This document shows, one piece after another, positions 1,122 through 4,436 of a stretch of DNA of 4,436 nt (positions are counted from its first letter, which is position 1; each line of letters opens with the position of its first letter). Location: IMG/VR virus record IMGVR_UViG_2582580962_000008, one strand, 5' to 3'. Below the pieces are notes generated by a model. It saw only the letters and a program-made list of their open reading frames with translations, was not told where the DNA came from and made no database searches. Both the position numbers and the translations under genes were made by a program. The stretch comes from a virus (lineage: Duplodnaviria; Heunggongvirae; Uroviricota; Caudoviricetes).

Positions 1122-1774
1122 TGAGTAATAAATATTGCCAGGCGCTGGTGGAACTACGGAACAAACCAGCCCATGAACTGAAGGAAGTGGGCGATCAGTG
1201 GCGCACGCCGGACAACATTTTCTGGGGAATTAACACCCTGTTTGGCCCGTTTGTTCTGGATCTGTTTACTGACGGTGATAACGCCAAATGTGCCGCGTAT
1301 TACACGGCGGAAGACAACGCGCTGGCACATGACTGGTCAGAACGTCTTGCGGAGCTTAAAGGTGCTGCCTTTGGTAATCCCCCGTACAGCCGCGCCAGTC
1401 AGCATGAGGGACAATACATCACCGGCATGCGTTACATCATGAAGCATGCCAGTGCCATGCGTGATAAAGGCGGGCGCTATGTTTTCCTGATCAAAGCGGC
1501 CACCAGCGAAGTGTGGTGGCCGGAAGATGCAGATCATATTGCTTTTATTCGCGGGCGTATTGGTTTTGAACTGCCAGCCTGGTTTATCCCGAAAGACGAA
1601 AAGCAGGTGCCAACAGGTGCTTTCTTCGCTGGTGCTATTGCTGTTTTCGACAAGACCTGGAAGGGAGCGGCAATCAGCTACATCGGGCGCGATGAACTTG
1701 AGGCATGTGGTGAGGCATTTCTGGCGCAGGTTCGCCAGCAGGCGGAAAAACTGGTCAGGGAGATGGCGGCATGA
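1121..1774 (+). CDS. Phage Dam-family DNA N6-adenine methyltransferase (orphan)
   Basis: ATG at 1121 is preceded by a GGGGG RBS (1112-1116) and overlaps the upstream stop; the track start at 1088 is an upstream GTG. The protein has the (D/N)PPY catalytic motif of N6-adenine methyltransferases (AAFGNPPYS) and an N-terminal WRTPDNIFWG...FVLDLFTDGDNAKC region typical of the phage Dam family. The stop overlaps the next start (ATGA at 1771-1774). Confidence 0.85.
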   Translation: MSNKYCQALVELRNKPAHELKEVGDQWRTPDNIFWGINTLFGPFVLDLFTDGDNAKCAAYYTAEDNALAHDWSERLAELKGAAFGNPPYSRASQHEGQYITGMRYIMKHASAMRDKGGRYVFLIKAATSEVWWPEDADHIAFIRGRIGFELPAWFIPKDEKQVPTGAFFAGAIAVFDKTWKGAAISYIGRDELEACGEAFLAQVRQQAEKLVREMAA

Positions 1775-2097
1775 CGACATTAACTCAATGCCAGCAGCAG
1801 GTGCTGGATATGCTGATTTCTTATCAGAAAGAACGTGGCTTCCCGCCAACCAATCAGGAGGTGGCAACCATGCTGGGATACCGTTCGGTGAATGCAGCGG
1901 TGGAGCATCTTCGCGCACTGGAGAAAAAAGGTGTCATCACGATAAAGCGTGGCGTGGCCCGGGGTATCACTCTTCATACCGCGGTGAAGGACGACGACAG
2001 CGAGGCGGTCGGGATTATCCGCGCCCTGCTTGCCGGTGAGGCAAACGCCAGGCTGCGTGCAGCCCACTGGTTACATGAGAGGGGCCTGAAAGTATGA
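1771..2097 (+). CDS. LexA-like protein consisting of the N-terminal winged-helix DNA-binding domain only (108 aa; no S24 peptidase domain)
   Basis: A GGGAG RBS (1758-1762) precedes the ATG. The protein aligns by eye over about 65 residues with the E. coli LexA N-terminus (LTxxQQxVxDxI...GxPPTxxExAxxLGxRSxNAAxEHLxALxKKGVIxIxxGxxRGIxL), including the RS-NAA-EHL recognition-helix region. It ends about 40 residues after the DNA-binding domain with a LexA hinge-like LLAGEANA segment and no Ser/Lys catalytic core. The stop overlaps the rusA start (ATGA). Confidence 0.85.
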   Translation: MTTLTQCQQQVLDMLISYQKERGFPPTNQEVATMLGYRSVNAAVEHLRALEKKGVITIKRGVARGITLHTAVKDDDSEAVGIIRALLAGEANARLRAAHWLHERGLKV

Positions 2098-2489
2098 AGC
2101 TAATACTGCCTTTTCCGCCCAGCGTGAACACGTACTGGCGACACCCCAACAAAGGGGCGTTTGCTGGTAAGAGCCTGATAAGCGCGGCGGGGCGAAAATT
2201 CCAGAGCGCGGCGTGTGCAGCAATAGTTGAGCAGTTACGTCGTCTGCCGAAACCAACGTCGGCACCTGCTTCAGTGGAGATCGTGTTGTTTCCTCCGGAT
2301 AACCGGATCCGCGATCTGGACAACTATAACAAGGCGCTGTTTGACGCCCTGACCCACGCGGGTGTGTGGGAAGACGACAGCCAGGTGAAAAGAATGCTGG
2401 TGGAGTGGGGACCGGTTATCCCGGAAGGGAAGGTCGAGATCACTATCAGTAAGTACGAAAAAGCGAGTTGCAAATTAGCAACTCGGTAA
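2094..2489 (+). CDS. rusA: RusA-family Holliday junction resolvase (crossover junction endodeoxyribonuclease)
   Basis: The N-terminal LPFPPSVNTYWRH matches the RusA LPWPPSxNxYYRH motif. The catalytic block RDLDNYNKALFDALTHAGVWEDDSQV corresponds to E. coli RusA D70/D72/K76/D91 ([28 protein letters not shown]). ATG at 2094 overlaps the upstream stop; TAA at 2487-2489. Confidence 0.9.
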   Translation: MKLILPFPPSVNTYWRHPNKGAFAGKSLISAAGRKFQSAACAAIVEQLRRLPKPTSAPASVEIVLFPPDNRIRDLDNYNKALFDALTHAGVWEDDSQVKRMLVEWGPVIPEGKVEITISKYEKASCKLATR

Positions 2490-2534: not shown

Positions 2535-2554
2535 TACTGTATTTATGAACAGTG
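2535..2554. promoter_or_regulatory. LexA (SOS) box-like operator: TACTGTATTTATGAACAGTG
   Basis: CTGT-N8-ACAG with an AT-rich spacer, matching the E. coli SOS box consensus TACTGTATATATATACAGTA at 16 of 20 positions, with both CTGT/ACAG half-sites intact. This is the only CTGT-N8-ACAG in the window. It sits in the intergenic region 98 bp upstream of the KilA-N gene start and directly abuts a -35-like TTGATA. Confidence 0.6.
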
Positions 2555-2559
2555 TATCC

Positions 2560-2588
2560 TTGATAACTATTAAAAATCGCAGTAAGTT
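2560..2588 (+). promoter_or_regulatory. Putative sigma70 promoter for the KilA-N/DUF968 genes (-35 TTGATA at 2560-2565, 17-bp spacer, weak -10 TAAGTT at 2583-2588)
   Basis: The -35 is a 5/6 match to TTGACA and the -10 only a 3/6 match to TATAAT. Placement is tentative; the promoter could equally overlap the SOS box itself. Confidence 0.25.
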
Positions 2589-2651
2589 CATCCTGCATCA
2601 ACGAAAAGGGAGTGCAGTCCCGCTCGTGGATAAAAATTTGTGGAGAAACCA

Positions 2652-3467
2652 ATGAATCAGTTGCTTGTAATTGATGGCGTTTCTGTGCGCCAGTACTTCG
2701 AATCTAACTACTGTCTTAACGACCTTCAGAAAGCTGCTCTTCTTGCCGCTGGTGAGAATCGCTCCTCCCGTTCGCTGGAAGTTCACGAGTTTATGCGTCG
2801 TCCTGAAACGAAGGCTCTTGTGGAATTATTGGAAGAAGAAACTACGGGAGATTCCCGTAGTATTCCTGTCATCACCATTCAGGGGCGCAATGGTGGGACG
2901 TATGTCTGTAAAGAGCTGGTCTATGCATATGCAATGTGGATCAGCCCGGCATTCAGCTTAAAAGTGATACGTACTTTTGATGCGCTTCATAATTCATCAC
3001 CAGAAGAAACCACATCCGACAAAATTAAATCCGGGGTCATTCTGCTTGAATCAGCAGCAAAGACTCTAAATCTGTCAAACTCCTCGAAACTTGGTGCATA
3101 CCAGAAATTATCAAAGGTAGCTGGTCTTCCTGAACTTATGCCGATCTATGCCATTGATGCACCTGCTGATGCGCCAGATGGTTCAAGCCGCCCTACGCTG
3201 TCGCTGAGTGCACTGCTGAAGCAGTATGGTATCCGCCTGACGGCTAATCAGGCATATCACCAGATGGCGAAGCTGGGGATCGTTGAACAACGCGAACGAT
3301 ACAGCCGTACCGCGATTAACAACATCAAAAAATTCTGGTCGCTGACAGCGAAAGGCTGCATGTTCGGCAAGAACATCACCAGTCCTGCAAATCCGCGCGA
3401 GACGCAGCCGCATTTCTTCGAATCCCGATTCCCTGAGCTGTTAAAGCTGCTCGATACCGTTCATTGA
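2652..3467 (+). CDS. KilA-N domain protein (antirepressor-like or Roi-like DNA-binding protein; C-terminal domain uncharacterised)
   Basis: ATG at 2652 follows a GGAG RBS (2642-2645) with a 6-nt spacer; the track start at 2640 is a GTG overlapping that RBS. The N-terminal domain has the KilA-N hallmark block GTYVCKELVYAYAMWISPAFSLKVI (family pattern GTWVHPxLAxxFAxWLSPxF) and the upstream YCLNDLQKAA segment. The stop TGA at 3465-3467 overlaps the RBS of the next gene. Confidence 0.8.
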   Translation: MNQLLVIDGVSVRQYFESNYCLNDLQKAALLAAGENRSSRSLEVHEFMRRPETKALVELLEEETTGDSRSIPVITIQGRNGGTYVCKELVYAYAMWISPAFSLKVIRTFDALHNSSPEETTSDKIKSGVILLESAAKTLNLSNSSKLGAYQKLSKVAGLPELMPIYAIDAPADAPDGSSRPTLSLSALLKQYGIRLTANQAYHQMAKLGIVEQRERYSRTAINNIKKFWSLTAKGCMFGKNITSPANPRETQPHFFESRFPELLKLLDTVH

Positions 3468-3474
3468 GGTGACC

Positions 3475-4436
3475 GTGAGAGCACTACTGACCCCTGAAAT
3501 TGCCCCGCGTATGGGGATCGTATTGTTCAGACCAGGTTCAGAGCTGATGCCCCTGTTTATGCAGGGGCGTGTCCTGCTGGAGCCTGAGCCGGAGCGTTAT
3601 TCATCTTTCGCCAGTGGTGCCGTTCCGGCGGCATCACAACCGCTGGCGGATGATCCTGCCGTTCGGGCCGTGTTCCGCAATGAGGCAGTGATCCGTCGTG
3701 CTGGTGGCGTGGAATGTCTTGAAAGCTGGTTACTTCGTGAAAAAGGCTGCCAGTGGCCTCATTCCGACTGGCACAGCGAGAACATGACCACAATGCGACA
3801 CGCTCCGGGTGCAATCCGTCTGTGCTGGCACTGCGATAATCAGCTGCGCGATCAGTTCACGGAACGGCTGGAATCAATGGCAACGGATAACTGTGCCCGC
3901 TGGGTGTTGTCTGTTGTGCGTCGGGATCTCGGTTTTGATGACAGTCACGTTGTGACAATGCCGGAACTGTGCTGGTGGCTGATTCGTAATGATCTGGCGG
4001 ATGCCTTACCGGAAAGTGCAGCCCGTAAGGCCCTGAGATTACCGAAGCCTGTTGTGCCGTCTGTCACCCGGGAAAGTGACCTTGTGCCTTCGGTTACTGC
4101 CACCAGCATCATCCAGGATAAGGCGAAAAAGGTGCTGGCGCTGAAAGTGGATCCGGAGTCGCCGGAGTCTTTTATGTTACGCCCAAAACGTCGTCGCTGG
4201 GTTAATGAAAAGTACACGCGCTGGGTTAAGACGCAGCCGTGTGCATGTTGTGGTAAGCCAGCCGACGATCCTCATCACCTGATTGGTCATGGTCAGGGTG
4301 GAATGGGTACAAAAGCGCATGACCTTTTTGTGTTGCCTTTGTGCAGAAAACACCATGACGAACTGCATGCGGATACCGTGGCATTTGAAGAGAAGTATGG
4401 TTCCCAACTGGAGCTGATATTTCGTTTTATCGATCG
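3475..4436 (+). CDS. DUF968-like prophage protein with a C-terminal Cys/His (HNH-like or zinc-binding) cluster; the 3' end is outside the window
   Basis: An uninterrupted frame-1 ORF runs from GTG at 3475 (GAGG RBS at 3466-3469, 5-nt spacer) to the window end, about 320 codons. It is absent from the track because no stop falls within the window. The C-terminal region CACCGKPADDPHHLIGHGQGGMGTKAHDLFVLPLCRKHHDELH is the conserved DUF968-type Cys/His block as I recall it (K-12 Qin YdfU is the family member I have in mind). The start codon choice (3469, 3475 or ATG 3511) is uncertain. Confidence 0.8.
   Translation, partial: MRALLTPEIAPRMGIVLFRPGSELMPLFMQGRVLLEPEPERYSSFASGAVPAASQPLADDPAVRAVFRNEAVIRRAGGVECLESWLLREKGCQWPHSDWHSENMTTMRHAPGAIRLCWHCDNQLRDQFTERLESMATDNCARWVLSVVRRDLGFDDSHVVTMPELCWWLIRNDLADALPESAARKALRLPKPVVPSVTRESDLVPSVTATSIIQDKAKKVLALKVDPESPESFMLRPKRRRWVNEKYTRWVKTQPCACCGKPADDPHHLIGHGQGGMGTKAHDLFVLPLCRKHHDELHADTVAFEEKYGSQLELIFRFID

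Follow-up and report, generated by a model that had tools for sequence, protein, structure and literature searches.

The window analysed here is a stretch of 4436 bases of Caudoviricetes DNA (IMG/VR record IMGVR_UViG_2582580962_000008), and all position numbers given below refer to it; labels such as L001, L083, and L090 denote related prophage or phage loci. A gene encoding a KilA-N domain protein of 271 amino acids (aa) lies at 2652–3467 on the + strand, behind a LexA operator (SOS box). The open reading frame (ORF) is a real and correctly placed prophage gene, and its control by LexA is well supported by sequence. With a probability of roughly 0.45, we tentatively propose that the protein is a Roi-like DNA-binding regulator of the lytic cycle, which would head a LexA-gated operon of the KilA-N, DUF968, and Q genes; both DNA binding and the biological role are suggested by analogy. 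A general regulator of the lytic cycle is more likely than a protein dedicated to inactivating one CI repressor. LexA-controlled prophage modules and regulators of the Rha/Bro/KilA-N class are both known kinds, and the system does not represent a new category.

The KilA-N gene and its LexA operator

The gene starts with an ATG at 2652, preceded by the Shine-Dalgarno sequence GGAG (2642–2645), and its stop codon ends at 3467. RefSeq carries an identical coding sequence of 816 nt under the name “KilA-N domain-containing protein,” and 2730 homologues of the protein were found. The Pfam search showed that residues 10–114 (2679–2993, + strand) matched the KilA-N family (PF04383) with an E-value of 1.3e-15 and a score of 57.6 bits against a cut-off of 23.8, and the match spanned positions 8–106 of the 107 in the profile, that is, most of its length. 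This head was 37% identical to P1 KilA over residues 4–109 and 43% identical to the KilA-N head of Emek Ant, which this P22-like phage encodes in immI. In the AlphaFold2 model, the head was composed of beta-beta-alpha...beta-beta-alpha elements with a predicted local distance difference test (pLDDT) value of about 80–89; a Foldseek comparison of the full-length model with the PDB returned no APSES/KilA-N structure. A first-pass annotation of this DNA had placed a KilA-N domain protein at 2652–3467, proposed a Pfam search as a check, and taken a lack of any match as grounds for dropping the assignment; the coordinates were right, and the match lay well above the cut-off. Among the homologues, proteins in which RusA or a LexA domain appeared to be fused to KilA-N, considered as Rosetta-stone candidates, proved to be frameshifted or deleted singletons.

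The LexA operator, TACTGTATTTATGAACAGTG, is located at 2535–2554, 97 nt upstream of the KilA-N ATG. It was the sole exact CTGT-N8-ACAG motif in the window, for which shuffled sequences gave an expectation of 0.07; it matched the consensus at 16 of 20 positions, had an AT-rich core, and lay beside a conserved −35 element, in line with the sequence features of a LexA-regulated promoter. The heterology index (HI) of the box was 4.7, within the range of the boxes in the matrix (0.6–9.3) and about 5 standard deviations away from the window mean of 37 ± 5.9; all HI values are approximate, since they come from a purpose-built matrix of 24 Escherichia coli boxes. Across 22–28 kb of L001 and L083, two related prophages, no other site had an HI below 8.5. 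The KilA-N gene is the first ORF downstream of the strong box, in line with its earlier description as the first gene behind an SOS box. A 36-aa ORF at 2545–2655 (+ strand) was rejected as a gene and is probably spurious: its ATG lies inside the SOS box and upstream of the predicted transcript start, and it has no Shine-Dalgarno sequence. Where the leader has lost 11 nt, as in some E. coli variants, gene callers fuse this ORF in frame to KilA-N.

A putative sigma-70 promoter was identified at 2560–2588 (+ strand). It consists of a −35 hexamer, TTGATA (2560–2565), which begins 5 nt past the LexA box, a 17-nt spacer, and a −10 hexamer, TAAGTT (2583–2588), and would start transcription at approximately 2594–2597. 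The region between rusA and KilA-N was aligned with its counterparts in prophages of Citrobacter, Kosakonia, Enterobacter, Superficieibacter, Atlantibacter, and Phytobacter. The alignment contained a CTG/GTG-N10-CAG palindrome at a fixed position, followed by 4–5 nt, TTGA(A/T)A, 17 nt, and TAAG(G/T)T or TAATGT. The promoter pair was conserved in register with the box in the Enterobacter, Superficieibacter, and Atlantibacter loci. The box of the window was the strongest version; those of the other genera often had one degenerate half-site (GTGG for CTGT; HI 9–13). Because the hexamers, weak as they are, are conserved in register with the box, we argue for a LexA-operated sigma-70 promoter, in which both LexA binding and promoter activity are predicted from sequence. 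In addition, a palindrome with perfect arms, CGAGTTGCAAA/TTAGCAACTCG, occupies 2464–2485, where it overlaps the 3′ end of rusA; it has no T-tract on the + strand. Palindromes also precede the LexA boxes of the Gifsy prophages, and the one found here is analogous.

Of 5426 complete E. coli genomes, 2283 (42%) contained the C-terminal coding part of the gene, at 2949 places. The spacer of 162 bp that carries the SOS box was found in 186 of the 5426 genomes, at 204 places (about 7% of the copies); these genomes included O104:H4 C227-11 and O55:H7 CB9615. In the phage collection, the spacer occurred only in PhiR49_1 and Shigella phage SfIV, and the SfIV paper makes no mention of it. The box was identical in at least 144 E. 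coli genomes and was kept in variants that were 88–93% identical. Copies without the box, which start 17–45 bp after rusA, were observed in mEp460, a Shiga toxin (Stx) phage of the Stx2k kind, ST64B, SfII-like prophages, Proteus, and Providencia. Since most copies follow rusA without a box, LexA control appears to be an add-on of one lineage and not a property of the gene family. Judged from its genomic context, the default expression of the gene is delayed-early, as part of the pR operon.

The KilA-N/DUF968/Q block and the C-terminal module

The gene order in Enterobacterales was rusA, KilA-N, DUF968 (a His-Me nuclease gene), and the Q antiterminator gene. In the window, rusA, which encodes a Holliday-junction resolvase and is the usual upstream neighbour of the KilA-N gene, occupies 2094–2489 (+ strand), and the DUF968 gene, whose product is a His-Me (HNH) nuclease-like protein, begins at 3475 on the same strand and extends beyond the window end at 4436. 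The KilA-N stop is separated from DUF968 by 7 nt, and in full loci DUF968 is separated from Q by 17 nt. No intergenic terminator was detected within the KilA-N/DUF968/Q block, in which weak terminator-like patterns occurred only inside coding sequence. DUF968 was positioned at +790 to +845 of KilA-N in nearly all Enterobacterales loci, and Q followed DUF968 in L001, L083–L086, and L090. Co-transcription of KilA-N with Q is predicted from this arrangement. The DUF968 gene product matched the Pfam models DUF968 (1e-77) and HNHc_6 (4e-6). Its C-terminal half is His-Me/HNH-like, with a weak RecA_dep_nuc/Ref-like match (E 0.07), and its N-terminal part of about 160 residues had no Pfam match. In some records, for example that of mEp460, the DUF968 gene is labelled “antitermination protein Q,” which is an apparent mis-annotation.

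The first-pass annotation had noted that about 150 C-terminal residues of the KilA-N protein contained no recognisable domain. This was borne out, as residues ~120–271 had no match in Pfam or NCBIfam; these residues are, however, not random sequence and form part of a widespread module that has no name. They matched PHROG 129 over the full length (4e-109), and the C-terminal half alone, used as a query, retrieved 804 cluster representatives at E ≤ 1e-3. The AlphaFold pLDDT was 77 for the full-length protein and 90.6 for the C-terminal half modelled alone. According to the models and alignments, the tail begins with two long helices (residues ~118–157; 3003–3122, + strand) bearing the conserved motif LNLSNSSKLG. 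They are followed by a conserved segment that is predicted to be disordered (residues ~160–182; 3129–3197, + strand; LPxYAIDAP...GSSxPT), with a pLDDT of 45–56; in the AlphaFold model, the low-confidence linker comprised residues 158–180. Among 103 distant relatives, P164, Y166, D169, S178, S179, and T182 of this segment were each at least 90% conserved, and the segment may represent a short linear binding motif. The last part is an alpha/beta winged-helix-like domain (residues ~181–270; 3192–3461, + strand) with the motif FWxxTxxGxxYGKNxTSPxNPRETQPHxY, in which YGKNxTSPxNPRETQPH is near-invariant; the order of its elements in the AlphaFold model is strand-helix-helix-strand-strand-helix-strand-strand-helix.

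The tail was much more conserved than the head and remained near-invariant across hosts and across differing N-terminal heads. In the 103 representatives, its N-terminal partners were Phage_pRha (34), Bro-N (19), KilA-N (15), AntA (8), ORF6N (6), and P22_AR_N (1). Judged from these pairings, the tail is a swappable module of the classical “Rha/Bro/Ant” class of phage regulators, distinct from ANT/KilAC and P22_AR_C. No match to ANT/KilAC (PF03374) was obtained in the C-terminal half at E ≤ 0.1, and only one of 41 family members matched it, with an E-value of 0.11. P22_AR_C, which is present in the Ant protein of Emek used as a comparator, was likewise not matched by the C-terminal half. Thus, the protein belongs to neither the ANT/KilAC nor the P22_AR family, and the only affinities of the tail were to winged-helix folds. 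Homology of the tail to the ANT domain of Roi was rejected, as the hhalign probability against Roi was 0.2%, in a comparison with Roi and not with a full ANT-family profile. An obligate partnership of the tail module with DUF968 was also rejected, because distant members have other neighbours. With 804 cluster representatives and six alternative heads, the tail module merits a family definition of its own.

In the mechanism that we propose, the protein would act through two modules, a KilA-N head that binds DNA and a tail formed by the helical hairpin, the conserved disordered motif, and the winged-helix-like domain. The variable head would select DNA sites, and the invariant tail would contact a conserved partner or nucleic acid, as in a lytic factor of the HK022 Roi type. 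The gene would serve as the first cistron of the tightly packed KilA-N/DUF968/Q block, which belongs to the nin-like region of lambdoid prophage DNA. Transcription of the block would in most relatives come solely from the early rightward operon by way of rusA, and in the lineage of the window the 162-bp spacer would supply a strong LexA operator abutting a weak sigma-70 promoter. Given this position of the operator, cleavage of LexA after DNA damage should raise the expression of KilA-N, DUF968, and Q together, without the participation of CI or pR. If the promoter works, the SOS response gains a second, CI-independent input into the timing of lysis. The putative promoter ahead of a block ending in Q is carried by the prophages of pathogenic E. 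coli (C227-11 and CB9615) and by the active phages SfIV and PhiR49_1, and the cassette as such is very common in E. coli.

In the prophage from which the window originates, the left part of the region is interrupted. The right end of an IS421 element (IS4-like; 1–390) is inserted into a phage replication gene, the last 73 codons of which are left at 409–630. The source prophage is probably defective, with its nin region severed from pR by IS421. With pR cut off in this way, the block may depend mainly, and perhaps entirely, on the LexA promoter in this prophage.

Comparison with known regulators and alternative explanations

Roi is a sequence-specific DNA-binding protein required for lytic growth. 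The KilA-N protein resembles Roi of HK022 and the roi product of Stx phages in being a two-module protein of the Rha/Bro-N/KilA-N class encoded shortly before Q in the nin region. We know of no report of a LexA box for roi. Both genes lie between the replication genes and Q, and their neighbours correspond: Roi is found beside RusA and YbcO, the KilA-N protein beside RusA and DUF968, and both nucleases are group-7 His-Me proteins; YbcO (DUF1364) and DUF968 have been placed in one His-Me finger group (PMC5714182). The two systems differ in gene order (roi-ybcO-rusA-Q in HK022, rusA-kilAN-DUF968-Q here) and in composition, since HK022 Roi has a Phage_pRha head with an ANT/KilAC tail, whereas the protein studied here combines a KilA-N head with an unrelated tail.

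Several observations weigh against a Roi-like regulator under LexA control. The tail had no detectable similarity to the ANT domain of Roi; therefore, “Roi-like” refers to an analogous position and architecture and does not imply homology. The box is missing from approximately 93% of the E. coli copies, which means that LexA control is not intrinsic to the function of the gene. The promoter hexamers are weak, with only 3 of 6 matches in the −10 element, and fall below the threshold of the consensus scan, and the operator is situated upstream of the −35 hexamer, not over the core promoter. In addition, a literature search found no experimental work on the KilA-N protein, its close homologues, the function of DUF968, the tail module, or this LexA box. 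The weakness of the hexamers, the upstream position of the box, and the degenerate half-site in other genera would also fit if the SOS box were not used for regulation, having arisen by chance or decayed, or if it served only the phage LexA-domain protein as an operator, with the gene transcribed purely as a delayed-early gene from pR. We consider this very unlikely, as an exact core with an AT-rich centre was expected only 0.07 times, its register to the −35 and −10 hexamers is conserved across genera, and the box is identical in at least 144 E. coli genomes and retained in variants of 88–93% identity. Moreover, further strong LexA boxes occur in related prophages, which indicates that this phage group is wired to LexA.

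Another explanation is that the protein is a LexA-controlled antirepressor, which would remove its own or a co-resident CI-type repressor from the operators and thereby speed up or coordinate induction. The LexA box directly upstream agrees with this, and the layout of the locus parallels the LexA-controlled antirepressor loci of Gifsy prophages, in which the box, located outside the immunity region, follows the replication genes and a palindrome (PMC3121763). Like GfoA, GftA, and GfhA of Gifsy, FsoA of Fels-1, Tum of 186, and AntC of N15, the KilA-N gene would be coupled directly to SOS by a LexA box. However, the Gifsy-type antirepressors are small proteins without a KilA-N domain, are encoded in a dinI-antirepressor-irsA operon, and act on repressors that are not cleaved, and the proven LexA-controlled ones (Tum, GfoA/GftA, AntC) are unrelated to the KilA-N protein. 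In contrast, the cognate repressors here appear to be self-cleaving. The identical KilA-N cassette is paired with three heteroimmune CI types, which are 22–36% identical to each other, and the CI proteins of L001, PhiR49_1, and O104:H4 C227-11 all keep the S24 motifs G-D-S-M and (V/F)K(K/R)L, so that the cognate repressor lacking RecA-stimulated self-cleavage that is typical of the Gifsy, 186, and N15 systems was not found. A VQAG motif resembling the cleavage site was present in the CI proteins of L001 and PhiR49_1, the Peptidase_S24 domain being confirmed by Pfam for L001 only. A self-cleaving repressor and an antirepressor can nevertheless coexist, as in Fels-1, which has a cleavable repressor and yet a LexA-controlled antirepressor acting in trans (PMC3121763).

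Similar considerations apply to antirepressors of the Ant type. Heads of the KilA-N type are encoded by some immI ant genes, the Ant of Emek combining one with a P22_AR_C tail, and the alternative heads of the tail module (AntA, P22_AR_N, Rha, Bro-N) are those of antirepressor-class proteins. P22 Ant acts on heterologous repressors, and its gene, in immI, is under the control of Mnt/Arc and not of LexA. The putative antirepressor Ant of Phi24B, with a C-terminus like that of P22 Ant, promotes efficient induction in a lambdoid Stx phage repressed by CI (PMC3064807), and its gene, like the KilA-N gene, is a nin-region gene in a phage that has a CI repressor. The P22_AR_C tail of the Emek and Phi24B proteins is, however, absent from the KilA-N protein, whose tail is neither ANT nor P22_AR_C and looks like a winged helix, a nucleic-acid-binding fold. 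Furthermore, a conserved tail with a variable head is the reverse of what would be expected for the partner of fast-evolving immunity repressors. Finally, most copies have no box and lie in the pR operon, including those of the active phages mEp460 and ST64B and of an Stx2k phage, and are therefore expressed only after CI has been inactivated. On balance, a dedicated antirepressor seems rather unlikely. The first-pass annotation had suggested an SOS-regulated antirepressor or a Roi-like factor; the strong LexA box, the Gifsy-like layout, and the Roi-like position and neighbours sustain the SOS-regulated and Roi-like parts of this suggestion, whereas the S24-type CI proteins, the majority of copies without a box, and the non-ANT tail speak against the antirepressor.

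The constant neighbourhood of the gene could also mean that the protein is a DNA-targeting or regulatory partner of the DUF968 His-Me nuclease, and possibly of RusA, in recombination, repair, or fork processing, which in this lineage would be inducible by SOS. Almost all Enterobacterales loci have the two genes side by side, as a rule behind rusA. Repair genes are typically controlled by LexA, and in HK022 Roi is paired with the related nuclease YbcO and with RusA; group 7 of the His-Me proteins has been hypothesised to act in recombination, repair, and replication (PMC5714182). We nevertheless judge such a partnership distinctly unlikely, since the same tail was found in Chromatium, Burkholderiales, Pseudomonadaceae, and Arsenophonus without a neighbouring DUF968/HNH gene, and thus does not depend on DUF968, and since the apparent RusA-KilA-N fusions were frameshift artefacts.

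The homology of the head to P1 KilA raises the question of a host-directed effector, that is, a toxic or takeover function of the kil type or an anti-defence factor acting on induction, in which the invariant tail would bind a conserved host protein. Expression of P1 KilA kills the host; the protein has a KilAC tail, and its gene lies within the P1 lytic replicon. The KilA-N domains of the two proteins are homologous, but the tail of the protein described here matched no Pfam model, ANT/KilAC included. The extreme conservation of the tail and its disordered motif across genera would be consistent with a conserved target not encoded by the phage. There was, however, no direct evidence for such a function, the sole PADLOC match being a KilA-N-like stretch of one candidate system, and the presence of the gene in 42% of complete E. 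coli genomes fits poorly with a leaky toxin. A host-directed role is accordingly given little probability, and a Roi-like lytic regulator remains our preferred reading.

Leader hairpin, further LexA boxes, and the flanking region

The 5′ leader of the KilA-N gene contains a hairpin at 2601–2627 (+ strand), with an outer stem ACGA/TCGT, an inner stem GGGA/TCCC, and the loop GTGCAG (2612–2617). A hairpin with a (G/T)TGCAG loop was detected 24–45 nt before the ATG in 29 of the 31 loci scanned, whether the SOS spacer was present or absent. It occurred in prophages of Enterobacteriaceae, Erwiniaceae, and Yersiniaceae, and in Morganellaceae the loop was T(G/A)TACGG instead. The stems showed covariation: 78% of the cells were paired compared with 51% in shuffled alignments, and the covariation score was 0.68 compared with 0.25, with none of 500 shuffles reaching as high a value and slid controls giving 0.07–0.31. 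Support was limited to this local hairpin, as the whole leader folded no better than shuffled sequences (z 0.26), and no Rfam family was matched anywhere in the window. A translational operator and a processing site are both possibilities. An N-utilisation site was rejected, because no similar hairpins were found beside pL or pR in L001 or L083. Short repeats in and around the KilA-N gene were at chance level only. In the leftward early operon, a hairpin CGACC-TTGCAG-GGTCG also preceded the start of yfdP by about 15 nt (L001 7011–7026 and L083 ~3994–4009, both on the − strand); it is perhaps a coincidence, since the number of such hairpins per locus was within about twofold of chance.

Two genes upstream of the SOS box, at 1771–2097 (+ strand), lies a gene for a 108-aa protein that consists only of a LexA DNA-binding domain (Pfam LexA_DNA_bind, 2.9e-19) and a short tail. 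The protein aligned without gaps to residues 2–70 of E. coli LexA and kept the recognition helix RS-NAA-EHL; it has no S24 catalytic domain, and a LAGE stretch is found where LexA has its AG cleavage site. It could be a LexA mimic made by the phage and a second ligand of the box. No clear association between this gene and the box was seen among the loci, as the gene was present in approximately half of the loci with a box and in several without one.

Related prophages bear up to three strong LexA boxes. Near-perfect boxes (HI 0.6–3.4; for example, TACTGTTTTTATATACAGTA) were observed inside the gene for a 230-aa S24-type CI protein in L014 (2371–2390), L011 (1865–1884), and L090 (3830–3849); they belong to SfII-like and O104:H4 prophages, lie in the linker between the helix-turn-helix and protease domains, and are far beyond chance. 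Another box, with an HI of 4.4–5.1, was located at the 5′ end of a late-region DNA methyltransferase gene past Q in the O104:H4 prophage (L090 13439–13458) and in mEp460 (L085 8300–8319).

These elements can be combined into a single scheme, which we regard as quite unlikely in its entirety. LexA would gate Q through the KilA-N/DUF968/Q operon, so that DNA damage would license late transcription of the lysis and virion genes, and of the toxin region in Stx-type relatives, bypassing CI. After the loss of host LexA, the 108-aa protein, a truncated LexA without S24 that is encoded in the same early operon, would re-occupy the box ahead of KilA-N, the other prophage boxes, and the SOS boxes of the host, and would thus act as a pulse generator on the SOS regulon. 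On top of this, the leader hairpin with its (G/U)UGCAG loop would provide post-transcriptional control as a third layer.

From base 391 on, the window is lambdoid prophage DNA with 98–99% identity to hundreds of E. coli genomes. On the + strand, the remnant of the replication gene is followed by a PerC-like gene, a Dam-type methyltransferase gene, the gene for the 108-aa LexA-domain protein, rusA, the 162-bp spacer, the KilA-N ORF, and DUF968. In intact relatives, Q is the next gene after DUF968, and about 5.5 kb to the left is the immunity region with CI, Cro, and the CII-like YmfL. The late regions past Q in L090 (10996–17491) and L001 (16092–24227) have a layout typical of Stx phages, with a methyltransferase gene, tRNA-Ile/Arg/Arg genes, a nanS-like SASA esterase gene, and a holin gene; stx genes were not seen in either of these regions. 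In L001, Q is directly followed by two inserted opposite-strand genes, for a cytosine methyltransferase and an ATP-dependent nuclease.

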